A stretch of DNA of 64,000 nucleotides from Thiotrichaceae bacterium UBA7357 (lineage in GTDB: Bacteria; Pseudomonadota; Gammaproteobacteria; Eutrophobiales; Eutrophobiaceae): NCBI GenBank assembly GCA_002470825.1, contig DKOR01000018.1:120482-184481 (forward strand). The letters are read 5' to 3'. Each line of letters starts with the position of its first letter. Position 1 is the first letter of the stretch. The position numbers and the translations under genes are program-made. Below, piece by piece: positions 1 through 19,999 of this stretch. The notes beneath the pieces were generated by a model. The model was not told the origin of the DNA, searched no databases, and was given only the letters and a program-made list of their open reading frames with translations.

Positions 1-428
1 GGGATAAGTCCGGGCTTTAAAAAGATATCGGCGTCTAGTAAAAGCAGATAGGGCGTTTTGATTAGTTGACGGCCTTGTTCCAAAGCCCATAACTTACCAC
101 TCCAACCTTCAGGTAGTGGGGTGCCCATAACAACATGTAAATTATTCAAATTTACGGCGAGAGCTTTTTCGACAGTATCATCGGTAGATTGATCATCGAT
201 CAGTATTACATTTAGTCCTTCTCCTTGTTCTTTTAGAGCAGCGAGTGTTTTATCGATTGTTTCTGTCTCATCTCTTGCAGGAATAAGAACAGTGGTATTA
301 GATAAATCGAGGTCTTCTACTGATTGGCTATCGAGTGTTTCTCGGGTGCTCCAAGCACGACACGGTAGTAGTAATATTGCGAGCCAAATAAGCAATCCTG
401 GCATTACTGCCAAGAGTGTTATTTCCAT
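1..428 (-). CDS. Family 2 glycosyltransferase, 5' portion only (gene continues past window start); HpnB-like hopanoid-associated GT
   Basis: Reverse-strand translation from the ATG at 428..426 gives MEITLLAVMPGLLIWLAILLLP (TM) ...VLIPARDETETI...ILIDDQSTDDT...GTPLPEGWSGKLWALEQG, a GT2/DPM1-like fold with the GWxGKLWA motif recalled for HpnB. The start overlaps the hpnH stop (TAATG). Confidence 0.55.
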   Translation of the reverse strand, partial: MEITLLAVMPGLLIWLAILLLPCRAWSTRETLDSQSVEDLDLSNTTVLIPARDETETIDKTLAALKEQGEGLNVILIDDQSTDDTVEKALAVNLNNLHVVMGTPLPEGWSGKLWALEQGRQLIKTPYLLLLDADIFLKPGLI

Positions 429-1555
429 TACGCGACTTGTTTGTTACTACTGCAACTTTTGGCGGCTGTAGTTTTCGCAACTAGTTTTGGTGCGATTACC
501 TCATCTTTATAAAGTATAGGTAATTCAGGTGCCATTTCGCCATCAGTCCTAGGACCTCTCAGGAATACACCCAATGCTTTAAATGGATGGTTAACTGTGT
601 CATTGACAGCGGTAGCTTCGAAGCCGCAATGAACCATACAGTTATCACATTTTGGATTTTTTCCAGTACCGTAATTGTCCCATTCGGTTTCTTCCATTAA
701 GCCAGCAAAGGTTGATGCATATCCCTCGCCAACTAATAAATAGCAAGGTTTTTGCCAGCCAAAAACATTACGGGTTGGGTTGCCCCAAGGGGTACATTCA
801 TATGTCTGATTCCCTGCCAAGAAGTCTAAATATAAGGATGATTGATTAAAACGCCAATTTTTGCCAATGCCCAGTTTAAATAAGTCACGAAAAAGTTGTT
901 TACTCTCCGTCTTTTTTAGAAACACGTCTTGCTTAGGTGCTCTTTCATAGTGATATCCTGGGGATATAGTGACAGCCTCAACACCCAATCCCATCGCCAT
1001 GTCCATGAACTCGGCTACTTCTTCGGCGGGCTCATTTTGAAATAAAGTACAATTAATAGTGACGCGGAAACCCTTTCCAATAGCCAGTTTAATTACGCTT
1101 ATACATTTTTCGAAGACACCTTCTAGGCAAACCGAAGCATCATGTCGTTTTTTGTTACCGTCTAAATGGATAGAAAAAGTTAGATAGGGTGATGGTGTGT
1201 ATTTGTCAATATGCTTTTTTAGCAATAGGGCATTAGTGCAAAGATAAACAAATTTCTTGCGTCCAATGTAGCCATTTACTATCTGAGACATTTCTTTGTG
1301 AATCAATGGTTCACCACCAGCAATAGAGACAACAGGCGCTCCACATTCATCAATTGCATTCATGCACTCGTCATAACTTAGCCGTTTATCAAGAATCTCT
1401 TTTGGGTAATCAATCTTGCCACAACCGGCGCAAGCTAAATTACACCTGAATAAAGGCTCCAACATCAATACAAGAGGATATTTCTTTACACCACTGATTT
1501 TCTTACCGAGAATATATTTACCCATTCTGTATTGCTGAATAAAGGGGACACTCAT
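428..1555 (-). CDS. hpnH: Hopanoid biosynthesis-associated radical SAM protein HpnH (adenosylhopane synthase)
   Basis: 375 aa. CNLACAGC (CX3CX2C) lies near the N-terminus and the protein aligns end to end with recalled HpnH (LVLMLEPLFRCNLACAGCGKI..., YLCTNALLL, ECTPWG.P.RN.FGWQKPCYL, CDNCMVHCG). Confidence 0.85.
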   Translation of the reverse strand: MSVPFIQQYRMGKYILGKKISGVKKYPLVLMLEPLFRCNLACAGCGKIDYPKEILDKRLSYDECMNAIDECGAPVVSIAGGEPLIHKEMSQIVNGYIGRKKFVYLCTNALLLKKHIDKYTPSPYLTFSIHLDGNKKRHDASVCLEGVFEKCISVIKLAIGKGFRVTINCTLFQNEPAEEVAEFMDMAMGLGVEAVTISPGYHYERAPKQDVFLKKTESKQLFRDLFKLGIGKNWRFNQSSLYLDFLAGNQTYECTPWGNPTRNVFGWQKPCYLLVGEGYASTFAGLMEETEWDNYGTGKNPKCDNCMVHCGFEATAVNDTVNHPFKALGVFLRGPRTDGEMAPELPILYKDEVIAPKLVAKTTAAKSCSSNKQVA

Positions 1556-1776
1556 TGTGACAACTCCAGATTATTTAATTGATTAGCAATATCCGTTAAT
1601 TTTAATTCTAACATACTAAATCACGTCAAGATAAGTGATGTTTGAGTGAATGTACAGTCTGTGTTTTATTTATTTTTTATATAGCTATAGGCCTTACTTG
1701 TATCGCTAAATTATTGTTCTTCTTGCATGCTTCTTTGTCACTATACATAATAGACACATTTGAGAGTTAATAAGTA

Positions 1777-3675
1777 ATGGATAACGACATTAATACACCT
1801 CTTTTAGATCAGATTGATTGTCCTGCAGACCTCAGAATGCTGCCCGAATCGCAATTAGAACAGCTTGTCGAAGAACTAAGATTGTTTTTATTACACTCTG
1901 TAAGTAAAAGTGGTGGACATTTTGCAGCGAGTTTGGGGGTCACTGAATTAACGGTAGCATTACATTATCTCTATAATACGCCCGAGGATCGTCTTGTCTG
2001 GGATGTGGGACATCAGGCTTATATTCATAAAATACTGACGGGTAGAAAAGATCAATTACATAGTATTCGACAATGGGAAGGTTTAAGTCCGTTTCCAAAA
2101 CGTGGTGAAAGTGAATATGATGCCTTTGGTGTAGGCCACTCCAGTACATCTATCAGCGCTGCTTTAGGGATGTCTATTGCCGCTGTGAGAACTGGTTCCG
2201 GTCGAAAGTCTGTCGCGATTATTGGCGACGGCAGTATGACTGCTGGGATGGCTTTTGAGGCATTGAATCATGCCGGTGCTTTACATAACGATCTATTAGT
2301 TATCTTGAACGATAACAATATGGCAATTTCACCTAATGTCGGAGCCTTATCAAATCGTTTTGCACAGCTATTATCTGGAAAGTTTTATACTAGTGTTCGC
2401 AGTAACAGTAAGAGAGTGCTGTCAAATATACCTAGTGCACTTGAGATAGCGAGGCGTGCCGAAGAACATGTTAAAGGGATGATTAGCCCAGGGACATTAT
2501 TTGAAGAATTTGGATTCAACTATATAGGGCCTATAGATGGTCATGATATGCACGCTTTAATTGCAACATTAAAGAATATTCAAGAACTTAAAGGTCCTCA
2601 ATTTTTACACATTATCACTAAAAAAGGTAAAGGTTATGCGCCGGCGGAAGACGATCCAATCAAATACCATGGCGTGACGCCTTTTGACCCGAATAAAGGC
2701 ATTATTTCTTCTGTTAAGCCGTTATCAGGGCCAACCTATAGTAAAGTATTTGGTGACTGGGCCTGTGATATGGCCAAGCAAGATCATCGTTTTGTAGCGA
2801 TTACTCCTGCGATGCGCGAAGGTTCCGGCTTGGTTCAGTTTGAAAAAGAACATCCAGATAAATATTATGATGTGGCAATAGCAGAACAGCACAGTGTCAC
2901 TGTTGCAGCTGGTATGGCATGCGATGGATTGAAGCCTGTTGTCGCAATTTATTCGACGTTCTTACAACGTGCATATGACCAATTGATACATGATGTCGTT
3001 GTTCAGAAATTACCAGTACTTTTTGCTATTGACAGGGCAGGCTGTGTTGGCGCCGATGGTCCGACACATAACGGTTCATATGATTTGAGCTTTATGCGTT
3101 GTTTGCCGGATATTGTGATTATGACACCTTCTGATGAAAATGAATGTCGGCAGATGCTATATACAGGCTACCAACTTGATCAACCTGTCGCTGTTCGTTA
3201 TCCACGTGGCGCGGGCCCAGGTGTTGAAGTAGTCAAAGACATGCAGGCACTTCCTATTGGTAAGTCTGAGCTCAGGCGTAAGGGTAAAAGTCTGGCTATT
3301 TTGGCGTTTGGAACAATGGTTGAACCCTGCGAACGTATTGCGCAAGACCTCGATGCCACAATCGTGAATATGCGTTTTGTTAAACCTATTGATGAAATGC
3401 TTATTATCGATATGTGCGAAACTCATGAATTGATCATTACCGTTGAAGAGAATGCTATATCCGGTGGAGCAGGTACAGCAGTGAATGAGGTGATTGCAGC
3501 AAATCGGATCAAACAAAAAATTGCTAATTATGGTTTACCAGATAGGTTACTGCAGCATGGTTCTAGAGAGGACATGTTGAGAGACGCAAAGCTTGATTAC
3601 GAAGGGATTCTTGATTTTATTACTGGGCGGATGAACGAATATGAGATGGATTATTTTGTTAGCAGTGCGTCTTAG
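1777..3675 (+). CDS. dxs: 1-deoxy-D-xylulose-5-phosphate synthase
   Basis: 632 aa with the [22 protein letters not shown] and [22 protein letters not shown]-binding motifs. Divergent from hpnH. Confidence 0.95.
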
Positions 3676-3703: not shown

Positions 3704-4786
3704 TTATTGAACAATCTTTTTCATTTCTTCAATAAATCTTTCTAAATCATTATTACTAATATCTCCCATACAAGAGATACGAAACAATGATTTGGCAAAC
3801 CCACCTTGTCCGGCATAGATGATAAAGCCAGCGTTCTTTAGTTTATCGTGTAGTTCTTCATAACTGATACCCTCAGGTAGCAGGAATGAATTTAGTACAC
3901 AGGAGGTTTCATTTCGTTCCAGTGAGGCTTTCATGTTTAATTCAAGCAAACCATTGCGAACAATGTCCATTCGTTGCCAGTATTGTTTCTGGCGTTTTCG
4001 CCAACCACCGGCATCGTTTAACTCATCTAATGCCTCGGCCAAGGCATAGAAGGTTTGTATTGATTGGGTGAAAGGTGTGCTATTGCTATCTTGTAGTTTC
4101 ATATAGGTCACAAGATCAAGATAGAGTGTGCGGGCAGGAGTTGCCGACATTTGTGTTATCGCTTCTCTATTACTGATAACGAATGAAGTGCCGGGGACAC
4201 CATGTAAACATTTATTTGCTGTTGCGGCGCAGGCAGCGATGTTCCATTCCTTGAATTTAATCTCTTCCGCACCAAAACTGCTAACGGCATCGAGCAAAAG
4301 TGGAATTCTCCCATGTTTATTAGAAAGTTCAGCAATGGCATCGATATCATTTAATCTTCCGGTGGTTGTTTCATGATGTACAACGGCAATATGGGATAGC
4401 TGTCTATTACATAGCAGCTCACTCTCTAACTTAGTCAGATCGATTTCCTCACCCCACTCATGATGAAGTATTACGTGTTCTATATTATGTGTTTTTGCTA
4501 TGTAACTTAAGCGTTCACCATAGACACCATTTTCTATAATTAAGACCTTCCCATGTGAAGGCACAAGACTAGTTATCATACCCTCCATTGCCGAGGTGCC
4601 AGAGCCAGTAAAGACTATGCTAGTCCATTGTTCTTCTGGCAGTTGATAAATATTTAGTAGATCGGTTTTGATCTTATTTTGTAATTTAATAAATTCTTGT
4701 TCACGATGACACAGATCGGGCTTTAATAGTGCCTGACGAACACGCTCACTTAAAACAACTGGACCAGGATTCAGTAATATAGTCAT
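3704..4786 (-). CDS. phnW: 2-aminoethylphosphonate:pyruvate aminotransferase (class V aminotransferase)
   Basis: 360 aa with the LLNPGPV N-terminus typical of the AGT/PhnW family. Last gene of the pepM-ppd operon. Confidence 0.75.
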   Translation of the reverse strand: MTILLNPGPVVLSERVRQALLKPDLCHREQEFIKLQNKIKTDLLNIYQLPEEQWTSIVFTGSGTSAMEGMITSLVPSHGKVLIIENGVYGERLSYIAKTHNIEHVILHHEWGEEIDLTKLESELLCNRQLSHIAVVHHETTTGRLNDIDAIAELSNKHGRIPLLLDAVSSFGAEEIKFKEWNIAACAATANKCLHGVPGTSFVISNREAITQMSATPARTLYLDLVTYMKLQDSNSTPFTQSIQTFYALAEALDELNDAGGWRKRQKQYWQRMDIVRNGLLELNMKASLERNETSCVLNSFLLPEGISYEELHDKLKNAGFIIYAGQGGFAKSLFRISCMGDISNNDLERFIEEMKKIVQ

Positions 4787-4788
4787 GA

Positions 4789-5943
4789 TTAAAAGCTGCT
4801 ATTAATATGTTTCATCAGTCTATTCAATACTTTATTTGGTGTGATGTCGGGTCTAGGTAGGTCTCCTATTGTGCCAGATGCTATTCTTAGATGGGCGAAT
4901 ACTGGCCCGTCTTGTGGTCCTATATTAAATAGCTTATCAATTATGTCGATTTCATTACTGGATAGACACACACTGTAACCACTTGCCTCTGCTACCTTCA
5001 AAAAATCGACATTACCACCAACGGTAGCTTGACCACCGGTAGAATCATGAACTTCATTATTCAATAGTATGTGGATTAGATTGTGACCTGCATAACTACC
5101 AATAGTAGCAAAATTACCCATACGCATCAGACCTGCGCCATCACCATCAATAATAACAACTTTTAAATCAGACCTAGCTAAAGCAACACCTAAACCTAAT
5201 GATGAAGCACAACCCATAGAACCCACCATATAAAAATGGTTGGAGCGATCATCGATGGCAAATAACTCACGACCGGTAAACCCTGTCGTCGCAATTAACA
5301 CTGTGTTTGCTTTAGGTGTCCGTTCGATAATTCTTTGCAAGACCTTATTACGATTAAGAGTTGATGCATCGGGATTATATGATGAATGAACAAGCGTCTT
5401 TCGTGATGAAATATCTTTCACTGGATTTTTATATAACGCCTGTGGCGCGACTGTACCTTTTTCCATTATAAAGGCGTAAGGTCTTTGTTCTTTTTTCATA
5501 TAATGATCTGCACGTTCTAGAGCTGGTCCTATATCTTCAACATTATTTGGAAATACTTCCCAAGGGACGCACATGGTGTCGAATAAATCTTTAGTTATTT
5601 GACCCATTAACTCATGTTGTGGCTCGTCTTTAATTCCAGGCTGACCACGATGAGTGCTTATAAGTAAATTTGGAATACGAAACACATAAGAAAGAGATGT
5701 TAACGGACTGATAGCGTTGCCTAGTCCTGAGTTTTGCATCATAACAACAGAACGCTGACCACCTATTGCTGCTCCTGCTGCGGTTGCTAATGCATCTCCT
5801 TCGTTAGCAGAGGAGACGTATTCCAATGTGTCATCGTTAATAACATAATTTATAAATGGTGTCAGGAATGAGCATGGCACACCCGTATAACGACTGAAAC
5901 CGAATTCGCGTGCCGCTTCAATAAATTCTTTTGCTTCGATCAA
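4789..5943 (-). CDS. ppd: Phosphonopyruvate decarboxylase (TPP-dependent)
   Basis: 384 aa with an N-terminal TPP-enzyme domain and a GDG...NN TPP-binding motif (VIIDGDGAGLMRMGNFATIG). Apparent TTG start 11 nt after the pepM stop. Confidence 0.8.
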   Translation of the reverse strand: MIEAKEFIEAAREFGFSRYTGVPCSFLTPFINYVINDDTLEYVSSANEGDALATAAGAAIGGQRSVVMMQNSGLGNAISPLTSLSYVFRIPNLLISTHRGQPGIKDEPQHELMGQITKDLFDTMCVPWEVFPNNVEDIGPALERADHYMKKEQRPYAFIMEKGTVAPQALYKNPVKDISSRKTLVHSSYNPDASTLNRNKVLQRIIERTPKANTVLIATTGFTGRELFAIDDRSNHFYMVGSMGCASSLGLGVALARSDLKVVIIDGDGAGLMRMGNFATIGSYAGHNLIHILLNNEVHDSTGGQATVGGNVDFLKVAEASGYSVCLSSNEIDIIDKLFNIGPQDGPVFAHLRIASGTIGDLPRPDITPNKVLNRLMKHINSSF

Positions 5944-5954
5944 TTTCGCTCTCT

Positions 5955-7592
5955 TTATTTTATAAAGTCGCTAGCGCGATCTATATCATCCAATGAATTT
6001 ACATCAAGCCAATGACCGTCTATATAATGAACATGGACTGGTTTCTCTTCTTGTATCAAATAATTTAACAAGTCAGGTATCGTAAGTTCATTGAAGTTTT
6101 TTGCTGACTTTAATTTTGTCAGCGCCGACTCTATCCATTCTCGGCCTTGTTTTCTGACACGCATCATCCCGATCCAGTAACCAGAAGGCTTTTTCTTAGA
6201 GGTATCAATTGAAGAAGATAGCTGTATTAATGTGACATCTTGCATAAACGGAGAACGATCATCATCTTTACTGCAATAGGCATAATCAGGATTGCCGGTT
6301 ATATTTGGATTATCCAAAGCAGAATCAACGATAATGACGACTTCCCCATCTGTTTCAATCAAGTCTCTCAGAATATATTCCCGAAACAATAGATCGCTAT
6401 AAAGAATCAACATATCGTCATTAAAATTTTCGTTTGCACAAATCAGTGTTTGTAGTTCATCACCTCTTTCGTAATCTTCATTGATACATTTCTCAATGCC
6501 GAGGAGATCTATCGCTTCCGCTTTATAACCTGCTATTACAGTAGATTTATTTATACCTACTTTTTTCAAGCCATCCATTAATCGACCTAGTAAGGTTTTA
6601 CCGCCAATACTGATCATCGCCTTTGGTTTATCATGTGTCAGCTCTCGTAATTCACTGCCCCTGCTTGCAGCTAGGATGACGGCATGGACATCTGATTTTT
6701 GTACTAAATATCTATCTTGTGCCTGACTTAATTCATCAGCACCTTGTAACTGAAAGATATGATCAACACTGGCAATTTTATCTTCAATATCGGCTAGAGA
6801 TTCTGAATCAAAAATAGCTTTACTAGTTTTTTCCATTTCATGAACAGAAGAGCGAATTAAATGATTGGCCCAAATAACCAAATTAATTCCTGCCTTACGA
6901 AAGGCATCTGTTGGTGTACTATAATATTTAGTTGGGACAATAACCAAGGGTGAGCGCTCAGCCCATTCTTTTGCAAAGGTGAGGATCTCATCTGGTCTGG
7001 AGAGTTTACTATGAATCAATACACCATCAGCACCGGCTTGACGATAGGCCTCTGCTCGCTTCAGTGCTTCATTTAATCCCCAGCCGGCAATCAGCGCTTC
7101 AACTCTCGCAACGATACTAAAATCATCATCGGATTGACTATCTTTACCTGCTTTAATTTTGCCACAAAATTCATCAATATCGGCCAAGGGTTGTTTGTTA
7201 CCATCGATAAAGCTATTTGTTTTTGGAAATTGTTTATCCTCTATACAAACGCCAGCAATATCACGTTGTTCTAGTTTTACGACAAGTCGACGCATATTGT
7301 TGAAATTACCATAACCGGTATCACCATCTAACAAGATTGGAATGCTTGTTGCGTCAGACATAAACTCTAGCATGTCGACTACCTGAGTCCAGCTTGCTTC
7401 GTTGCTGTCACGCACACCAAATTGTGCTGATATGGCAAGACCACTACCCCAGATACCTTTAAAACCGGCACTTTCTACAATACTTGCAGAAATACCATTA
7501 TGTGCTTCCAGAATGAATTCAAGTTCATTTGATTCAAGCAAAGAGCTTAGTTGTTTACACTTGCTAATTTTTTCACGACTATTTTTAGACAT
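5955..7592 (-). CDS. pepM: Phosphoenolpyruvate phosphomutase fused to a C-terminal LicC/CTP-transferase-like nucleotidyltransferase domain
   Basis: 545 aa. The N-terminal ~290 aa are an ICL/PEP mutase fold ([10 protein letters not shown]..., EDKQFPK..NSF); the C-terminal ~250 aa carry the NTase motif ([14 protein letters not shown]...[12 protein letters not shown]). Confidence 0.85.
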
Positions 7593-7611
7593 TTTTATAT
7601 TTAGCTAATGA

Positions 7612-8361
7612 TTAATAATTGATAGGTGATAATTTAGGGATTATCTCATTTTGGGCACGTTCAATATCTTCAGGAAAATCTATTTCGATCCAAGGAATGC
7701 CAGTAACATCTTCATAGCCAAATTGCTCGGGATATATTAATAATAGATCGCGAATTGCTTCTTCATACGGTGTATTGTTTTTGTTTTTTGCAAGATAGTC
7801 ATTTATTCGCCCAAGCAATGATGTGCCTATTAGCTTAGTAAACTTGAAAAAGCCGACTGATTCACCTTGTATAGCGTAATCAAGCTTTTCATCGATATTT
7901 TTTCTAAACTCATTTATTTGAGCATTTTTATCAACACAAATTTTTACAGGTTCATTACCAGGGATAAAATCACGGTCGAGCAAAAGGCAGTTTTTTATAT
8001 TCGTATTGATCAGACGAGTTATCATTTCATGACCATACAGAACATCAGCATCCATCAAAATAAATTCAGATTCATTGTATAGTGTTTCTTGTGCACAACT
8101 AAGGCTGATAATACTTCCTTCGGCATAACGATCATTATAAATATAGTTTATTGGTATTGTTTCATTGCTGAGATGAGTCTTTATCATTTCAGACTGATAG
8201 CCAGTGACTATTGTTATTTCTTCGATATGATTTGCCGAAAGAATTTCAATATGACGCTTTAATAGACTTTTCCCTTCAAACTTCAGTAATGACTTAGGTT
8301 GATTGGCAGCATGCATACCGAGTCTGTTACCAATGCCTGCGGCAAGAATAATAGCCTTCAT
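7612..8361 (-). CDS. LicC-like nucleotidyltransferase (CTP:phospho-base cytidylyltransferase family)
   Basis: MKAIILAAGIGNRLG N-terminus from the ATG at 8361..8359. The ORF is open further upstream to 8505, but that extension has no NTase similarity. Confidence 0.7.
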   Translation of the reverse strand: MKAIILAAGIGNRLGMHAANQPKSLLKFEGKSLLKRHIEILSANHIEEITIVTGYQSEMIKTHLSNETIPINYIYNDRYAEGSIISLSCAQETLYNESEFILMDADVLYGHEMITRLINTNIKNCLLLDRDFIPGNEPVKICVDKNAQINEFRKNIDEKLDYAIQGESVGFFKFTKLIGTSLLGRINDYLAKNKNNTPYEEAIRDLLLIYPEQFGYEDVTGIPWIEIDFPEDIERAQNEIIPKLSPINY

Positions 8362-8906
8362 AATCTTGTTATTTATACCTTTGTGTAAATGGTTCTTGAA
8401 CCAAAGGACTTCAAGTCCCTCATTTGCAACTATCAGGAATAGTTGGATTGTATCATTGTTACAAAAAATGTCCTTATGTACATTTGCAGATGAAAATATA
8501 GTCATGAATAATATATGTTAATAAGCCATTATGAATGATTATAATCAATATAATTAGCCCTATAAATAAATATTACTGAGCAACTTGACGATGAGAGTAT
8601 GTGATTCATTTGTCAAAGAGCAATGAATTATCGGTCAGGCAAGGTACTATTTTAGGGTAAGTCTTGATTAATTGCTGGCTTCATGGGTTATATTAAAATT
8701 GTAAGTAAGTATGCAAATACACAAAATTGTTTTTCATCTCTATGGCATGATTTCTGTAAAATCAAATCAACTAATATATCTTCGGCTAATACTTTCTTTT
8801 TTTATTTAATTCAAATTGAATATCTATTATTTTTTACTCGACTATCTATGCAGGTCATTAATTGAAAAATTTTTTGTAATTATATTCATGTACGTTTCTC
8901 GAACAA

Positions 8907-11351: not shown

Positions 11352-12644
11352 ATGACTGACAACATGCCAGAAAAAATTGGAAAATATGAAGTTCGAAATG
11401 AGATCAATCGCGGGAGTATGGGAGTCGTTTATCTTGGACACGATCCTTACGTAAATCGACATGTTGCTTTGAAGCTCGCATTTCTAGACTCACTTAATGA
11501 ACCAGAGTTTGGTGAGCGATATCGTAAAATGTTTTTTAATGAAGCTCATACTGCTGGTTTACTAACGCACCCCAATATTATTAATATTTATGATGCTGGT
11601 GTAGATGGTGACAATTGTTATATTGTTATGGAATATATTGAAGGTGGTAATACACTTAAGCCATATTGTGATTCCAATATGTTATTACCTATCAATAAAG
11701 TCGTTGAAATAATATTTAAATGTGCAAGTGCACTTGACTACGCACATCGACAAGGGGTTGTACATAGAGATATTAAACCTTCAAATATACTTTTTACGCC
11801 CGACCAAAATGTAAAGATTGCGGATTTTAGTATTGCTCATATATATAACGCAGATTCAACGACGACACAGGTGGGTGGAATGATGGGGTCGCCAAGATAT
11901 ATGTCTCCGGAACAACTTAAAGAAGAATACATAACTAACCAGAGTGATATTTTTTCATTAGGTGTGGTCATGTATGAGTTGTTGACAGGACGACAACCAT
12001 TTGCTGCAAATAGCTTTTCAGGATTGGTAAATAGTGTATTAAATGATGAGCCGCCGCCAATGAATAACTATCGGAATAATCTGCCTGAAGCTTTAAAAGA
12101 GATCGTAAATAAAGCTTTGAACAAAGATCTTTCTAATCGCTACAAGATGGGATTAGATTTTGCTGCAGATCTTACTAAAGCATTTGATATGTTGGGGAAG
12201 CCTAGAGAAGATATTTTTGTTAAAGAAAGATTTAATGCTGTCAAAACATTAGAATTTTTTGCTGATTTTGACGACACAGAAATTTGGGAAATTTTACATG
12301 CTAGTACATGGAAAGCTTATCATACTAATGATGATATTATTGTTGAAGGAGATATAGATGATTGTTTTTATGTCATCGTTAATGGCAGTGTTGAGGTGAC
12401 GAAAAATAGATCAGTCATTCGAAGGTTGGAAAAAGGCGATTGTTTTGGTGAAATGGGTTATCTATCTAAAACTAAGCGAACTGCCACTATCAAATCACTT
12501 GATTGTACGTCGATAATGAAAATTAATTCAACAGTGATTAATCAGGCATCAATAAATTGCCAGGTACGATTTTACAAGGTTTTTTTGAGAACCTTAATAA
12601 ATCGACTATCTGAAACTACAGAAAAGATATCTCAGGAGGTCTGA
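11352..12644 (+). CDS. Eukaryotic-like Ser/Thr protein kinase fused to a C-terminal cyclic-nucleotide-binding (CAP-family) domain
   Basis: 430 aa. Hanks kinase motifs are present (GRGSMGVVY, VALK, HRDIKPSNILF, ADFSIA, SPEQ); the C-terminal ~120 aa show a cNMP-binding pattern (IIVEGDIDDCFYVIVNGSVEV..GDCFGEMGYL..RTATIKS). Confidence 0.8.
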   Translation: MTDNMPEKIGKYEVRNEINRGSMGVVYLGHDPYVNRHVALKLAFLDSLNEPEFGERYRKMFFNEAHTAGLLTHPNIINIYDAGVDGDNCYIVMEYIEGGNTLKPYCDSNMLLPINKVVEIIFKCASALDYAHRQGVVHRDIKPSNILFTPDQNVKIADFSIAHIYNADSTTTQVGGMMGSPRYMSPEQLKEEYITNQSDIFSLGVVMYELLTGRQPFAANSFSGLVNSVLNDEPPPMNNYRNNLPEALKEIVNKALNKDLSNRYKMGLDFAADLTKAFDMLGKPREDIFVKERFNAVKTLEFFADFDDTEIWEILHASTWKAYHTNDDIIVEGDIDDCFYVIVNGSVEVTKNRSVIRRLEKGDCFGEMGYLSKTKRTATIKSLDCTSIMKINSTVINQASINCQVRFYKVFLRTLINRLSETTEKISQEV

Positions 12645-13296: not shown

Positions 13297-14259
13297 ATGT
13301 ACGATACATCATCTTTACTCAATCAAAGAAAATTTCCAATGATTAAGCGAAAGAGCCTAACTACGCTACAAATCAATATTGGCTTGAAGTGTAATCAGCA
13401 GTGTTTTCATTGCCATGTTAATTCGAGCCCCAAAAGAAAAGAAAAAATGTCTAATGCCACTATTAAGGCAATTAAGCTATTTCTAAAAAATAATAATATT
13501 GAATCACTTGATATCACTGGTGGTGCGCCAGAACTTCACTCAGAATTCAGATCTCTTATAAAATATGCGCGTGAAAATGATGTGCATGTTATAGATCGGT
13601 GTAATCTGACTATTTTAGAAGAGCCAGGGATGGAATACCTTGCGCAATTTTTAGCAGATTATGAAGTAGAAATTATAGCTTCTCTACCTTGCTATGAACT
13701 AGAAAATGTTGATAAACAACGAGGTGTAGGTGTGTTTGAGAAAAGTATCAGGGGTTTGAAAAAATTGAATAAAGTAGGTTATGGACATTCAAATTTGGAG
13801 TTACCTTTGAATTTAGTATTTAATCCTCAGGGGGCAGCATTGCCACCACCACAAGATTATCTGGAACGAACTTATAAAAAAGAATTATTGGAGAGGCATG
13901 GAATTAAATTCAATAAACTTTTTACATTATGTAATATGCCAATAAACAGATTTGGAAGTACCTTGGTATCCAAAAATCAATTAGATGACTATATGAGAAT
14001 GCTTACGGGTTCGCATAGGGAAGAGAATCTAAGAGATGTGATGTGTCGTAGTTTAATCAGTGTTGACTGGCAAGGTTATGTATATGATTGTGATTTTAAT
14101 CAAATGTTGAATATAAATTTAAATGATGCCGAAGAAAAAATATCGATTTCTGATTTGGTTGGTAATGATATTGAAGGTGATATAATTGCAGTGCGGGATC
14201 ATTGTTATGGTTGTACGGCAGGGCAAGGTAGTAGCTGTAGCGGTGCATTAACTGCTTGA
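13297..14259 (+). CDS. Radical SAM / C-terminal Cys-rich domain protein, ArsS-like (TIGR04167-type rSAM/selenodomain protein, Cys version)
   Basis: 320 aa with an N-terminal CNQQCFHC (CX3CX2C), the ITGGAPELH glycine-rich motif and a C-terminal Cys cluster CYGCTAGQGSSCSG. Immediately followed by its two usual partner transferases. Confidence 0.75.
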   Translation: MYDTSSLLNQRKFPMIKRKSLTTLQINIGLKCNQQCFHCHVNSSPKRKEKMSNATIKAIKLFLKNNNIESLDITGGAPELHSEFRSLIKYARENDVHVIDRCNLTILEEPGMEYLAQFLADYEVEIIASLPCYELENVDKQRGVGVFEKSIRGLKKLNKVGYGHSNLELPLNLVFNPQGAALPPPQDYLERTYKKELLERHGIKFNKLFTLCNMPINRFGSTLVSKNQLDDYMRMLTGSHREENLRDVMCRSLISVDWQGYVYDCDFNQMLNINLNDAEEKISISDLVGNDIEGDIIAVRDHCYGCTAGQGSSCSGALTA

Positions 14260-14265
14260 GATTAT

Positions 14266-14946
14266 ATGCAAAAAAAAATATCTATTATAATCCCAACACT
14301 AAATGAAGCCGACCAAGTTGAACGACAGCTGGCTAAGCTTCAGACGTTACGGAAAAATGGTCATGAGGTGATTTTAGTAGATGGTGGCAGTATTGATGGT
14401 ACAGTTTCATTAGTAATATCATTATGTGATCAAGTTTATGAGTCTCAACGATCACGCTCAATTCAAATGAACTATGGAGCAAGAAAAGCGACGGGAAAAT
14501 GTTACGTATTTTTACATGCTGATACAATTCTTCCAGATGACATTATTCAGTTTTTGTTGAAGATTAATAATATTGAAGAAAAATGGGGCAGGTTCGATAT
14601 AAGTCTGTCAGGAAGACACTGGCTATTCCGTGTTATTGAGTCATTTATTAATTGTCGATCAAGTTTTACAGGTATTGTTACAGGTGATCAGGTTATTTTT
14701 ATTGGAGAGGAATTGTTTTCCAGAGTGGGAGGATATCCAGAAATAGCTTTAATGGAAGATATTGCTATATCTAGTTTGTTGATTAAATTTTCAAAGCCAA
14801 TTCGAACTAGAAAAAAGGTAATCAGTTCTAGTCGACGTTGGGAAAAAAATGGAATATTTAAAACAATTATAACAATGTGGATATTAAGATTATTATATTT
14901 CTTTGATTATGATATTAATAAAATAGCAAGATACTATGGAAAATGA
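14266..14946 (+). CDS. Family 2 glycosyltransferase (rSAM/selenodomain-associated transferase 2, TIGR04283-like)
   Basis: 226 aa with the ISIIIPTLNE...VILVDGGSIDGT GT2 N-terminus. Starts 6 nt after the rSAM stop and overlaps the next gene by 11 nt. Confidence 0.75.
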   Translation: MQKKISIIIPTLNEADQVERQLAKLQTLRKNGHEVILVDGGSIDGTVSLVISLCDQVYESQRSRSIQMNYGARKATGKCYVFLHADTILPDDIIQFLLKINNIEEKWGRFDISLSGRHWLFRVIESFINCRSSFTGIVTGDQVIFIGEELFSRVGGYPEIALMEDIAISSLLIKFSKPIRTRKKVISSSRRWEKNGIFKTIITMWILRLLYFFDYDINKIARYYGK

Positions 14947-15580
14947 ATTTTCTAGAGGAGCTCTCTTAATCTTTACAAAAGCACCTGTGCGCGGACATGT
15001 TAAAACACGATTAATCCCAAGCATTGGTCTAGAGCATGCTACTTCGATATATCAAGAAATTTTAACAAAGACGCTAAGCACGGCAAGAAAATCTAATTTT
15101 TCTTCTATACAGGTATGGGTTGATGGTGGGGTTGAGCATGCTTATTTTAAGCGTTTAAAAAGTAGGCATAAGGTTAAATTTTACAAACAGAAAGGTAAGG
15201 ATTTAGGAGTACGAATGATGAACGCCTTTAAAATTGCTTTACGTCAATATTCTCATGCTGTTTTAATTGGTGGAGACTGTCCTTCATTAGAATATTTAGA
15301 TTTAATAATGGCAAGTGACTATCTTAAGAACAATACAGATGTAGTCTTAGGCCCTGCAATTGATGGCGGTTACTATTTGATAGGTTTAAATAAAAACAAT
15401 GCTCAAATATTCACAAATGTAAAATGGGGTAAAAGCGGAGTGTTTGCTCACACTTGTGAAAATATAAGTGCTCTAGGCTTGAAGCTTGACTTGTTGCCAG
15501 AGCGTTGGGATGTTGACCGAACTGTTGATTTACTACCTTACTTCAAGATGAAACGAAAAAACGCCACTCTTTACTACTAA
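14936..15580 (+). CDS. DUF2064 / MobA-like nucleotidyltransferase-fold protein (rSAM/selenodomain-associated transferase 1, TIGR04282-like)
   Basis: 214 aa with LIFTKAPVRGHVKTRL...DLGVRMMNAF...LIGGDCP...GPAIDGGYYLIG. The G-x-D-x-P and DGGY motifs are typical of the DUF2064 family. Confidence 0.65.
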   Translation: MENEFSRGALLIFTKAPVRGHVKTRLIPSIGLEHATSIYQEILTKTLSTARKSNFSSIQVWVDGGVEHAYFKRLKSRHKVKFYKQKGKDLGVRMMNAFKIALRQYSHAVLIGGDCPSLEYLDLIMASDYLKNNTDVVLGPAIDGGYYLIGLNKNNAQIFTNVKWGKSGVFAHTCENISALGLKLDLLPERWDVDRTVDLLPYFKMKRKNATLYY

Positions 15581-16227: not shown

Positions 16228-17319
16228 CTATAATTTTGTATTTTTTATACGAATAATACAGTCAATTGTAGCATGCTGGAAATCCATAAATTCATTCGGT
16301 TTACATCCAATAACTTTTGGATCAAATGACCCCAAAACATCAATTTCTAATTGGTTGGCTAATTTCCTTATTAAAGGCTCGACGACTTCCATTGTTAGTC
16401 TGTTTTTCGAATTAATGTTAGCCCATACATTTGGATGGTAGGGAGTAAGAAGAAAAACTGGAGTAACACCTTTGTTAATTAGAGAGCGTATGTGTCTACG
16501 ATATAGATCTAATGCATTAAGATCATAGTATGTGCCTTCCGTAAGATATGTTGGTTCTATCAACGGGATTGGAAAAACTTTCGAATTATCTATTTTTTTT
16601 GCAGAATAGATGATACTTCCATCAGGTAACAAAACAGAGTCTTCTAATCCAACCTCTTCGTCAAAAGAAGGAGCATCCTTGATTGATTCTTTGCCATTAG
16701 CGGCCAAAAACATTGCTTTTTTTATAGATCGAATCGTATATTCAAGACTTAATAGATTTGATAGTTTAGCACTGTTGAACTTGTCAGAGTTTGTCGTGAG
16801 TGTATCAACCTGTTCCAACTCCTTCAATGCATTCATATATACATCTGGGTACGCATTCTGCCAAGCTAAGCCTTTACCAATATGGAATACCCAAGGATCT
16901 ATACAAAAAATAATTTTATTTGGTTTTTGATTAGAGTTGGTAGCAGCAAAGGAAAGTGCAATATGATCTTCAAGTAGAGCACCAGAAACTGCGAGATTAA
17001 AAATCTTTTCGCACATTTCTGCCAAGGAACTTTTTTTTCGAAAACTACTCAATTGCATTGCGTGGCTGCTACCAATTATCACGCAGTCAACTTCACCAAC
17101 TGATTGCGCTAATTCAATCTTAATCTTTCGATCATTCCATGAATGAGATTTGAAAAATAAGCCATGATGAGATTGTATCAATCTATTAGCGTATTCCTTC
17201 GAGCTATTACTGGATACCCTGTAAATTCCTGCAGGGTCATACACAATGTTGACTGAAACAGCTGCGGACAACACTAATGTAGCAAACAATCCTAATATTA
17301 TCAGATAGCGTTTCGACAT
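16228..17319 (-). CDS. Periplasmic SGNH-like O-acyltransferase partner protein (AlgJ/AlgX/DltD/PatB-like)
   Basis: 363 aa with an N-terminal signal anchor, a GSSH (GDS-like) motif at VIIGSSHAMQ and a C-terminal DFQH. Immediately downstream of the MBOAT gene, 3-nt gap. Confidence 0.5.
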   Translation of the reverse strand: MSKRYLIILGLFATLVLSAAVSVNIVYDPAGIYRVSSNSSKEYANRLIQSHHGLFFKSHSWNDRKIKIELAQSVGEVDCVIIGSSHAMQLSSFRKKSSLAEMCEKIFNLAVSGALLEDHIALSFAATNSNQKPNKIIFCIDPWVFHIGKGLAWQNAYPDVYMNALKELEQVDTLTTNSDKFNSAKLSNLLSLEYTIRSIKKAMFLAANGKESIKDAPSFDEEVGLEDSVLLPDGSIIYSAKKIDNSKVFPIPLIEPTYLTEGTYYDLNALDLYRRHIRSLINKGVTPVFLLTPYHPNVWANINSKNRLTMEVVEPLIRKLANQLEIDVLGSFDPKVIGCKPNEFMDFQHATIDCIIRIKNTKL

Positions 17320-17322
17320 TGT

Positions 17323-18867
17323 TCAGAACTGAAAATATAGGAATTGGCTCGTCTTTTTAAGATTCAGCAAAGCAAATCCTAAAACAAGCCCAGCCATTAC
17401 TGCCCATACCTTGGTAGGACGCCAACTCAACCAACTTATCTGACGCTCATTCCGACTTGAGTCCAATGCAAGTGAGTAATGGGTGAGCCATTGCTGAACA
17501 TTGGGCAATATCCAGACAACAAATAACCCTCCAACAAGCCAACAGATAGTAACCTTTCCAGCACCACCACCTATTAATGGGGCCAAACCATTAAAAATGA
17601 TGTAATCGCTCCGTACCATGTGGCTCAGGAATGGGTAAAACTGATTGGGTAAACTAATCCCATTCAGCCCTATCATGCCCGATAAAATACTCATTGCTGC
17701 ATCCATATTTTCCGCACGGAAAAACACCCATGCAGCCGTTACCGCTATAAAAGTCAAAAAAATCATAAATATATGGGCAAATTTTCCTAATGGCACGGCG
17801 CTTGTTCCAATCAGTGTACGCCAACTATGGTTGAGCACTAAGTACGCACCGTGCAACCCTCCCCAAATAATGAAATTCCACCCAGCACCGTGCCATAAAC
17901 CGCCTAGAAGCATGGTTGCCATTATATTCCGATAGCGGATGAATTTACCATGACGGTTGCCCCCGAGAGGTATGTAGAGATATTCTCGTAAGAATGCGGA
18001 CAATGTTATGTGCCAACGCCGCCAGAAATCAATAATATTTGAAGCTTTGTAAGGTGAATTGAAGTTCAGCGGAAGACGAATATTGAACATGCGCGATAAA
18101 CCTATAGCCATATCCGAATATCCTGAAAAATCGAAATACAATTGCAGGGAGTAAGCTAGTGCCCCAAACCAAGCTTCAAAAAACATTGACTGCTCACCAC
18201 TAGCAGCGCCATTAAAAACCGGTGTGGCATATAAGGCGAACTGGTCTGCAAGTACAACTTTTTTGAATAACCCAACAGCAAAAATTGTAATGCCAATAGC
18301 CAAATGATCATAATTTAGTTTATATACCCAATCTTTTGCAAACTGAGGCATCATTTCCTTATGGTGGACAATCGGGCCAGCAATTAACTGAGGAAAGAAA
18401 GTGACAAATAAACAATAATGCAGAAAATTATATTCTCTTGTTTTTCCTTTATATGCATCGACTAAATAAGCTATTTGCTGAAAGGTAAAAAAAGAAATTG
18501 CCAAAGGTAAAATAATGGTCTTTAAATTAAAGTCTAATCCAATTGCCAGGTTCAAATTATCTACAAAAAAATTGGCGTATTTAAAATAACCGAGAAGTAC
18601 AATATTCCCAGAAATCCCAATAAAAAGTAATGATTTCTCATGGGACCAGACCTTCTTTACTAACATCACTCCAATCGAATAATTAAACAGAATCGAGAAT
18701 AGTATTAATCCAAGATAAGCAGGATTCCACCATCCATAAAAAAAAAGTGAGGCACCCACTAACCAAGAAATAGCAATTCTATGATGCCCTTTCTTGCCAA
18801 TCATAAAAAAGCCAATCAATGTAAATGGTAAAAATAGAAAGATGAATGCGTAAGAGTTGAAAAGCAT
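17323..18867 (-). CDS. MBOAT-family membrane-bound O-acyltransferase (AlgI/DltB/PatA-like)
   Basis: Start taken at MLFNSYAFIFLFLPF (ATG at 18867..18865), which is the typical AlgI/DltB N-terminus; the ORF is open further upstream to 18984. MBOAT signature WRRWHITLSAFLREYLYIPLGG plus an invariant His. Confidence 0.85.
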   Translation of the reverse strand: MLFNSYAFIFLFLPFTLIGFFMIGKKGHHRIAISWLVGASLFFYGWWNPAYLGLILFSILFNYSIGVMLVKKVWSHEKSLLFIGISGNIVLLGYFKYANFFVDNLNLAIGLDFNLKTIILPLAISFFTFQQIAYLVDAYKGKTREYNFLHYCLFVTFFPQLIAGPIVHHKEMMPQFAKDWVYKLNYDHLAIGITIFAVGLFKKVVLADQFALYATPVFNGAASGEQSMFFEAWFGALAYSLQLYFDFSGYSDMAIGLSRMFNIRLPLNFNSPYKASNIIDFWRRWHITLSAFLREYLYIPLGGNRHGKFIRYRNIMATMLLGGLWHGAGWNFIIWGGLHGAYLVLNHSWRTLIGTSAVPLGKFAHIFMIFLTFIAVTAAWVFFRAENMDAAMSILSGMIGLNGISLPNQFYPFLSHMVRSDYIIFNGLAPLIGGGAGKVTICWLVGGLFVVWILPNVQQWLTHYSLALDSSRNERQISWLSWRPTKVWAVMAGLVLGFALLNLKKTSQFLYFQF

Positions 18868-19999
18868 ATTTTTATTATATCTAACGACCTCTAAATTGTA
18901 ACGCAACATCTTTCGGTATGAAAAAAATAAGAAGTGAAGTGTTGAATAATGGAACACTATGCGTATTTTGATAGTAAGGAACATACTTCATAGGAACTAA
19001 GACTCAGAAGGATGGGTACTAACTGATTTAGAAATGGACCATCTTTTTGGTAAGGATTTAGTTCTCTCAGTTTTACTGAAAACATCTCTTGCTGCTGTGA
19101 CTGTTGTAAATAACAATTAGCTTAATCTAGCTGTATTGCCAATAAGTTACTATAACGATGAAGAGCTGTTTTTTGTAAATTAATTCTGTAGCTTATGTTG
19201 GATTGTAAGCTTCTTAATCGCTTTACTTCCTCGAGTCTTTTCGTTATCTATTACGACATATGTAAAGGACATACCAGAAAAAATATTTCTTGAAATAGCA
19301 TTCAATTTAGATTTACCAGCAATGAAAGTTCTTCATTTTTTTGTAGATAAATATCAATCCGTCTTTACACACAGAAGACATAAATGGTTAAGAAGAGGTA
19401 TAAAAGTATATGCAGAGGTATTTATGGCACTTTTACATAAAAAATATCTGAGTTGGCTTATCTATAATAGTTAAGAAAAGTGATGTTCTTTCTAAGGTGC
19501 CAACATAAAACGTATCCTGAGAATCAAGGTAACTAGGATGTGCTGTTTCTATCCTCAGAATTATTCTCTAAGAGTAATCCATTTCCTGTTCTTGAGTGTA
19601 GTAAAATTTGTCGATATGTCGTAACATTTTGATGTAATAAAATTATACAGATTGTGTAACAGAAGGTTGTCTAAATTAGGTGAGATTCCCTATATTTTCT
19701 CAATTTTAGCGAAATTAATAGAGATACTGGATAACTCTAGACTGTAACCACTGCCATATTCTGTATGCGACTAATTGAATAAAATTATATTTCTAGATTT
19801 AGATAATGATCCTATATTTGATATTCAGATACTATATGAATATAGAGTAACTGTGATTTGTAATGAACGCAGATTCAATTATATTATAAATATTAAGATG
19901 CTGGGTCGATTATTCTAATGAGATAAAAGGATTTACTGCTATACATTACGTATAAAGGCTTTTTCGATAACTTCATCAATTATAAATTTACTTCACACA

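Follow-up and report, generated by a model that had tools for sequence, protein, structure and literature searches.

The 64,000-nucleotide stretch of contig DKOR01000018.1 from Thiotrichaceae bacterium UBA7357 that was analysed here (hereafter, the window) carries at its left end the beginning of a predicted four-gene operon, hpnH-hpnB-hpnM-hpnS, which is divergent from the isoprenoid gene dxs. Judged from gene families and gene order, this operon probably belongs to a hopanoid pathway split between loci, of which it would be the arm for C35 side-chain synthesis and envelope trafficking, while the squalene-hopene cyclase (SHC, encoded by shc) would be located elsewhere in the genome. The gene families involved are already known, and public annotation names the proteins of this group HpnH. 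The new element is modest and consists of a broad, environmentally common clade in which a tailoring and transport operon stands beside dxs, unlinked from the cyclase.

The hpnH-hpnB-hpnM-hpnS operon

The first gene of the operon encodes a radical SAM protein that scored 538.3 bits against the HpnH profile TIGR03470, for which the curated equivalog cutoff is 225.05, with the whole profile covered (positions 1-318 of 318). Its CxxxCxxC motif reads CNLACAGC at residues 38-45, and its Pfam architecture pairs Radical_SAM (PF04055) with a C-terminal DUF3463 (PF11946). The assignment to HpnH, proposed in an earlier note on this DNA, is upheld by these scores, and membership in a different radical SAM subfamily is not indicated, since the second-ranking family reached only 79 bits. 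In a published evaluation, TIGR03470 recovered all validated HpnH sequences and none of the negative controls (bioRxiv 10.1101/2025.07.29.667474).

The stop codon of hpnH shares one base with the start codon of the following gene (TAATG), in agreement with the translational overlap described previously. This second gene encodes a family-2 glycosyltransferase (GT2), and only 142 of its 370 codons lie inside the window, the remainder extending beyond the left end; the best NCBIfam match of the 142-residue fragment was TIGR03469 (HpnB), with 99.6 bits. On the other side of hpnH, the dxs product scored 899 bits against TIGR00204 (cutoff 465.95). The two genes are arranged head-to-head, so that the earlier description of dxs as divergent is accurate, while the expression "back to back" was loose wording. 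The gene content previously claimed for this segment is confirmed at the positions given in Table 1. The label of AT-rich gammaproteobacterium is likewise acceptable, considering that the GC content of the window is about 37% and that the nearest genomes are metagenome-assembled genomes (MAGs) of uncultured Gammaproteobacteria.

Table 1. Positions of the hopanoid-associated features and of dxs in the window
Feature	Position	Strand	Basis
hpnB 5' part, codons 1-142 of 370 (hopene-associated family-2 glycosyltransferase)	1..428	-	TIGR03469; DAD at residue 132
hpnH, radical SAM adenosyl-hopene transferase, 375 aa	428..1555	-	TIGR03470; CNLACAGC; PF04055 + PF11946
Divergent control region hpnH/dxs, 221 bp	1556..1776	.	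Conserved blocks across the clade
Putative promoter-like element, hpnH operon (TGTACA, 17 nt, TATCTT)	1628..1656	-	Block conservation
Putative promoter-like element, dxs (TTGCAT, 17 nt, CATAAT)	1723..1751	+	Block conservation
dxs, 1-deoxy-D-xylulose-5-phosphate synthase, 632 aa, entry enzyme of the methylerythritol phosphate isoprenoid pathway	1777..3675	+	TIGR00204

The continuation of the operon could be read on a 189-kb contig (ERZ978241 k127_315510, from a run labelled marine metagenome) that is identical to the window over 11,555 nt, with zero mismatches. There, the full-length hpnB (L001:11128-12240) encodes a protein of 370 aa that carries the DxD motif of GT2 enzymes as DAD at residue 132 and passes TIGR03469 (395.2 bits against a cutoff of 379.25), which bears out the resemblance to HpnB suggested from the fragment. 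The next gene, hpnM, starts 123 bp past hpnB and encodes an MlaC-fold protein (PF05494) of 207 aa, whose score of 166.4 bits against TIGR03481 represents a marginal pass (cutoff 160.1) and whose hydrophobic N-terminus, judged by eye, is a predicted signal peptide. Both the HpnB and the HpnM models are of the "hypothetical equivalog" type. Another 99 bp downstream, hpnS encodes an MlaA-family protein (PF04333) of 263 aa with a lipobox-like LAAGC sequence, which reached 123 bits on the MlaA model NF011672, under the MlaA cutoff of 375. Past hpnS, glcF/E/D-like genes converge from the opposite strand, followed by the RNase G gene and yhdP. The unit is thus a four-gene operon that includes hpnH and the GT2 gene of the earlier note, in which the transport half formed by hpnM and hpnS had been missed.

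The name hpnS follows a recent preprint, in which it designates the MlaA-like gene found beside hpnM, and in which HpnM and the MlaA-like HpnS are proposed as hopanoid trafficking factors (bioRxiv 10.1101/2025.07.29.667474). About 8 kb past the right end of the window, another gene of the MlaA family was found (L078:21962 onward, plus strand, 237 aa). This second copy is presumably the housekeeping mlaA, and the copy linked to hpnM would therefore be a dedicated paralogue.

According to this reading, the four genes would be transcribed away from dxs over a shared 221-bp control region, and dxs would supply isoprenoid precursors. By analogy with its characterised family, HpnH would add a 5'-deoxyadenosyl radical to diploptene, producing adenosylhopane in the committed step to the C35 bacteriohopanepolyols, while HpnB would be a membrane family-2 glycosyltransferase that travels with hpnH. 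HpnM would act as a periplasmic MlaC-like lipid carrier and HpnS as an MlaA-like outer-membrane lipoprotein, and together they could ferry hopanoids between both membranes. The cyclase arm, composed of squalene synthase (sqs), shc and hpnG, would have been removed from this locus throughout the clade, and it is presumed to reside elsewhere in the genome. What the enzymes catalyse, the role in transport, the promoters and the presence of shc at another site are all predictions from the DNA and protein sequences.

The spacer between hpnH and dxs contains blocks conserved among clade members whose synonymous sites are saturated. On the dxs side, the clade has conserved the block ATTATGAATAGTGAC...GCATGCAAGAAGA (opposite strand), and the promoter-like element TTGCAT-17-CATAAT lies 26 nt upstream of the dxs ATG; on the hpnH side, the block TGTACA-17-TATCTT shows conservation in 18 aligned intergenic regions of the clade, and GGAG precedes the hpnH ATG. 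These elements may correspond to two divergent sigma-70-like promoters, one for dxs and one for the hpnH operon. A stricter consensus promoter scan listed neither of them, and an Rfam search of the spacer returned no credible family.

Conservation of the locus across the clade

The comparison was made with one genome per species and comprised 48 loci, with 72-96% identity between their HpnH and that of the window. All 48 belong to uncultured gammaproteobacterial MAGs, with GC contents of 33-66% and apparent habitats, judged from isolate names and record titles, that include seawater, sponges and corals, groundwater and soil; the nearest of them carry the NCBI labels Thiotrichaceae bacterium UBA7359 (HpnH 96% identical) and UBA973 (94%). 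The genes hpnH, hpnB, hpnM and hpnS are all present in this order in 35 of the 37 loci that extend 3 kb or more downstream, and dxs is divergent from hpnH in 38 of the 40 with sufficient upstream sequence. Beyond dxs, a pepM cluster was found in 25 of the 31 loci with at least 9 kb upstream. Two loci are atypical (L037 and L067), their upstream genes being all housekeeping. SHC, Sqs, HpnG, HpnA and IspH were absent within 10 kb of hpnH in every locus (0/48).

Purifying selection acts on all four genes of the operon, and hpnH is constrained at least as strongly as dxs. Pairwise Nei-Gojobori estimates, restricted to relatives with unsaturated dS, gave dN/dS values of 0.03-0.05 for hpnH, 0.08-0.13 for hpnB, 0.13-0.15 for hpnM and 0.09-0.15 for hpnS, to be compared with 0.04-0.07 for dxs and 0.11-0.13 for glcF. 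In one relative (L053, CALSOP010000002.1, a contig of 1.07 Mb), hpnH, hpnB, hpnM, dxs and pepM all appear split into several open reading frames (ORFs). Since the breaks reach housekeeping genes too, frameshift errors of long-read sequencing seem a better explanation than decay of the operon.

In a neighbour-joining tree of HpnH (no bootstrap), the clade loci form one group nested inside the shc-linked HpnH sequences. Outside the clade, in sister and outgroup lineages, a gammaproteobacterial supercluster was recognised in which hpnH-(hpnB)-hpnM-hpnS and sqs-shc-hpnG are immediate neighbours in divergent orientation; in many cases ispH lies upstream of hpnH and dxs is found a few kb farther on. 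It occurs in L081/L118 and L175, which have an HpnH with 70% identity to that of the window, and in the Methylococcales-like range L104-L129 (L104, L107, L108, L115, L117 and L128), as well as at L054, L055 and L152. The module order and orientation are the same as in the window, and the identities between the two operons amount to 70% for HpnH, 44-48% for HpnB, about 41% for HpnS and 31-33% for HpnM. In contrast to the supercluster, the window locus is devoid of sqs-shc-hpnG and the clade usually has no ispH upstream of hpnH, which directly faces dxs. The clade layout thus equals the common layout minus the sqs-shc-hpnG segment between hpnH and dxs, and the simplest reading of this arrangement would be a single excision or relocation of that segment at the base of the clade.

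Search for the cyclase arm

A six-frame scan of the window and of L001 for the DxDD(T/S)(A/G) motif together with QW motifs detected no ORF that carries them. In Pfam annotation covering the entire window and 10 kb past its right end, no SQHop_cyclase, PNP_UDP_1 (hpnG) or MMPL (hpnN) domain appeared, and phmmer searches with Sqs, SHC, HpnG, HpnA, HpnC/D/E, IspH and IspA sequences from other loci produced no match in the window. A contiguous shc-centred hpn cluster, with shc, hpnG and squalene synthesis genes a few kb from hpnH, was accordingly not observed. A single gene of the SQS_PSY family was found about 5.5 kb beyond the right end of the window (L078:19534-20388, minus strand, 284 aa), beside DUF1674 and sdhCDAB. 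It was rejected as a squalene synthase, given that its full-length HpnD alignment reached 94 bits against a cutoff of 278.6 and both Asp-rich motifs are gone; the product is probably assembly-factor-like and not a squalene or phytoene synthase.

The search was also extended beyond the locus. A HMMER scan of 1.84 billion representatives for SHC candidates, followed by cluster and context look-ups, yielded several proteins, none of which was retained. P0291 belongs to a 29%-GC genome of another lineage that holds a full cluster, P0121 and P0433 come from sister lineages with shc adjacent, P0126 and P0285 from unrelated lineages, and P0143 and P0128 lie on phage-like contigs. P0123, a Sqs-SHC fusion accompanied by hpnG and hpnA with no hpnH nearby, showed no link to the clade in tests of tetranucleotide usage and shared genes. 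When P0123 was used to scan JGI metagenomes, 80 Sqs-SHC or sqs-shc loci were examined and none was assignable to the organism of the window. Literature searches for hopanoids in this gammaproteobacterial group found nothing. Hopanoid production by this organism is therefore unproven, because the cyclase on which it depends has not been located.

Weighing the split pathway against its alternatives

Several observations weigh against a split pathway with a cyclase elsewhere in the genome. Neither shc, sqs/hpnCDE, hpnG, hpnA nor hpnN was found in about 85 kb (the window plus 10 kb on each side), and none of the 48 clade genomes has shc inside 10 kb of hpnH. Additionally, SHC queries of the Methylococcaceae type (P0001) and of a sister lineage (P0121) returned no entry on at least 14 complete or near-complete clade chromosomes, which is a weak test, since only the best 120 of 8000 matches were considered for each query, with identities of at least 62-67%. 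Regarding the trafficking half, HpnM clears its cutoff narrowly, and the transport role of HpnM and HpnS is a preprint hypothesis derived from synteny and AlphaFold models. HpnB, described as a GT2 that co-occurs with hpnH, is a protein without demonstrated function (PMC12583986).

Loss of the cyclase is the leading alternative, albeit an unlikely one. In this case, the module would act on hopanoids, or on another isopropenyl-bearing isoprenoid, not made by the cell itself; for example, HpnS and HpnM could import exogenous diploptene, which HpnH would then tailor. Such a loss would account for the fact that precisely sqs-shc-hpnG is absent between hpnH and dxs relative to related loci, for the lack of a cyclase or squalene synthase in the 85 kb or in any clade locus, and for the lack of SHC matches on clade chromosomes in the two best-120 lists. 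It is also compatible with the strong purifying selection on the four genes, which indicates that they do something, and with the direction of transport in the E. coli Mla system, in which lipid is carried inwards, from the outer membrane to the inner one. On the other hand, the inspected share is below 5% of a genome of 2-2.7 Mb, and the SHC lists are blind to homologues under about 62% identity. Moreover, no case of hpnH without shc was found in the literature searched, a pelagic, free-living bacterium is unlikely to draw on free diploptene, and the adjacency of dxs suits endogenous isoprenoid synthesis. The more far-reaching proposal, namely that a widespread clade is without any cyclase after excision of sqs-shc-hpnG, and that its cells are hopanoid scavengers or tailors that rely on import by HpnS/HpnM and extension by HpnH, also appears doubtful.

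A role unrelated to hopanoids, in which the radical SAM protein would be a paralogue resembling HpnH and the GT2 and Mla-like genes would serve another envelope lipid, such as one connected with the neighbouring phosphonate cluster, is highly improbable. The unlinked cyclase, the pepM and 2-aminoethylphosphonate (AEP) cluster found across dxs in most clade loci with enough sequence, and the "hypothetical equivalog" status of the HpnB and HpnM models could be read in this way. Nevertheless, HpnH scores over its full length at more than twice its equivalog cutoff, far above the next radical SAM family, and benchmarking of TIGR03470 in the literature yielded no false positives. The window protein also shares 70% identity with HpnH proteins encoded beside sqs-shc, and it nests within the shc-linked HpnH tree.

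Finally, hpnH lies a few kb from shc in many bacteria (L054-L064, L080, L081 and L171), yet the expectation of the earlier note that the window cuts a canonical contiguous hpn cluster, with shc/hpnF, hpnG, hpnA and hpnCDE immediately to the left, is refuted, given that the left 10 kb on the identical contig hold hpnB, hpnM, hpnS, glcDEF, RNase G and yhdP instead and that the shc-less layout is repeated in 48 related genomes.

Comparison with known hopanoid and lipid-transport systems

The classical hpn clusters of Zymomonas, Rhodopseudomonas and Burkholderia comprise hpnA-hpnH together with hpnN, with hpnM also as a member. Like them, the window locus holds orthologues of hpnH and hpnB according to curated HMMs (hidden Markov models). 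Unlike them, it has no hpnCDE, shc/hpnF, hpnG, hpnA or hpnN in the roughly 85 kb covered. In comparison with these clusters, the pathway of the window's organism would be at least split into separate loci.

With regard to transport, HpnM and, after it, an MlaA-like lipoprotein are encoded here beside hopanoid genes of a diderm gammaproteobacterium, an arrangement that resembles the module proposed by Lawrence et al. (bioRxiv 10.1101/2025.07.29.667474). In the preprint, closeness to shc or hpnN was the defining trait of that module, whereas the pair in the window operon is co-operonic with hpnH-hpnB and linked to neither of them. The pair also shares with MlaA and MlaC of the E. coli Mla system the families PF04333 and PF05494, as well as a predicted signal peptide and lipobox. 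However, its scores are far under the equivalog cutoffs (123 versus 375 for MlaA and 39 versus 195 for MlaC), and no MlaFEDB genes are adjacent.

Other features of the window and of related loci

Directly past dxs, the window carries a complete set for AEP biosynthesis (3704-8505, minus strand), composed of AEP transaminase, phosphonopyruvate decarboxylase, a PEP (phosphoenolpyruvate) mutase-nucleotidyltransferase fusion and a second nucleotidyltransferase. In one hopanoid locus of unrelated origin (L166), pepM is likewise present within 6 kb. The AEP set may represent an envelope-lipid island, and any link to hopanoids is speculative. Farther to the right, an arsenosugar-type three-gene cassette (13297-15580, plus strand) encodes an ArsS radical SAM protein (TIGR04167, 446 bits), a TIGR04283 glycosyltransferase and a TIGR04282 protein; a similar cassette adjoins a Sqs-SHC fusion gene at an unrelated locus (L090:5983-8704). 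The region 16228-18984 (minus strand) encodes a membrane acyltransferase of the MBOAT family (DltB-like, 165 bits, below cutoff) and a 363-aa protein without family match, which may be a pair for polysaccharide or lipid O-acylation. At 11352-12644 (plus strand), a eukaryote-type Ser/Thr protein kinase is fused to a cyclic-nucleotide-binding domain (Pfam Pkinase and cNMP_binding).

P0143 (646 aa) and P0128 (625 aa), two of the rejected cyclase candidates, are different full-length SHC homologues, both with DxDD, found on contigs that resemble large phage genomes and carry dozens of small ORFs on one strand (L083-L086, ENA GROS21-1, 51-251 kb, the longest in the cluster reaching 371 kb; and L087, JGI 3300063142, 46 kb). 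P0143 is present on 21 contigs, and the PHROG matches of L083 include PhoH, RNA ligase, HNH endonuclease and RecBCD inhibitor, as well as phrog_26613 with 267 bits. Two scans of IMG/VR for these homologues gave no match, and no literature pairing "jumbo phage" with squalene-hopene cyclase was found. A phage-borne hopanoid cyclase would be unusual, if true.

Matches to the Sqs-SHC fusion query (JGI loci L088 and L091-L170) are very common, with at least 591 confirmed in one metagenome scan. In L088 and L092, the Sqs and SHC domains share one ORF of about 1,000 aa, with ispA upstream and hpnG and hpnA downstream, and many other loci have separate adjacent sqs and shc ORFs. Because no hpnH lies within 10 kb of the fusion, hpnG and hpnA in L088 and L092, these constitute a second example of a split hopanoid pathway.

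Biological significance

The locus provides an independent and strongly conserved case in which hpnM and hpnS are co-operonic with hpnH, which supports a role of this pair in hopanoid handling. The separation of a tailoring and trafficking arm from a cyclase arm, be the latter unlinked or lost, also means that neighbourhood searches centred on shc miss the hopanoid genes of this clade.

In the assembly collection, 61 blocks contain the exact HpnH of the window, and the six contigs viewed in detail were all from environmental metagenomes, among them one labelled marine and one TARA sample. The occurrence of the exact protein in many environmental assemblies suggests that the organism is common in seawater. 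Should the clade turn out to be cyclase-less, marine C35 hopanoids would derive in part from organisms unable to cyclise squalene. Where the bacteriohopanepolyols of the open ocean come from is poorly constrained, and the organism of the window would be a candidate source if the cyclase is present.

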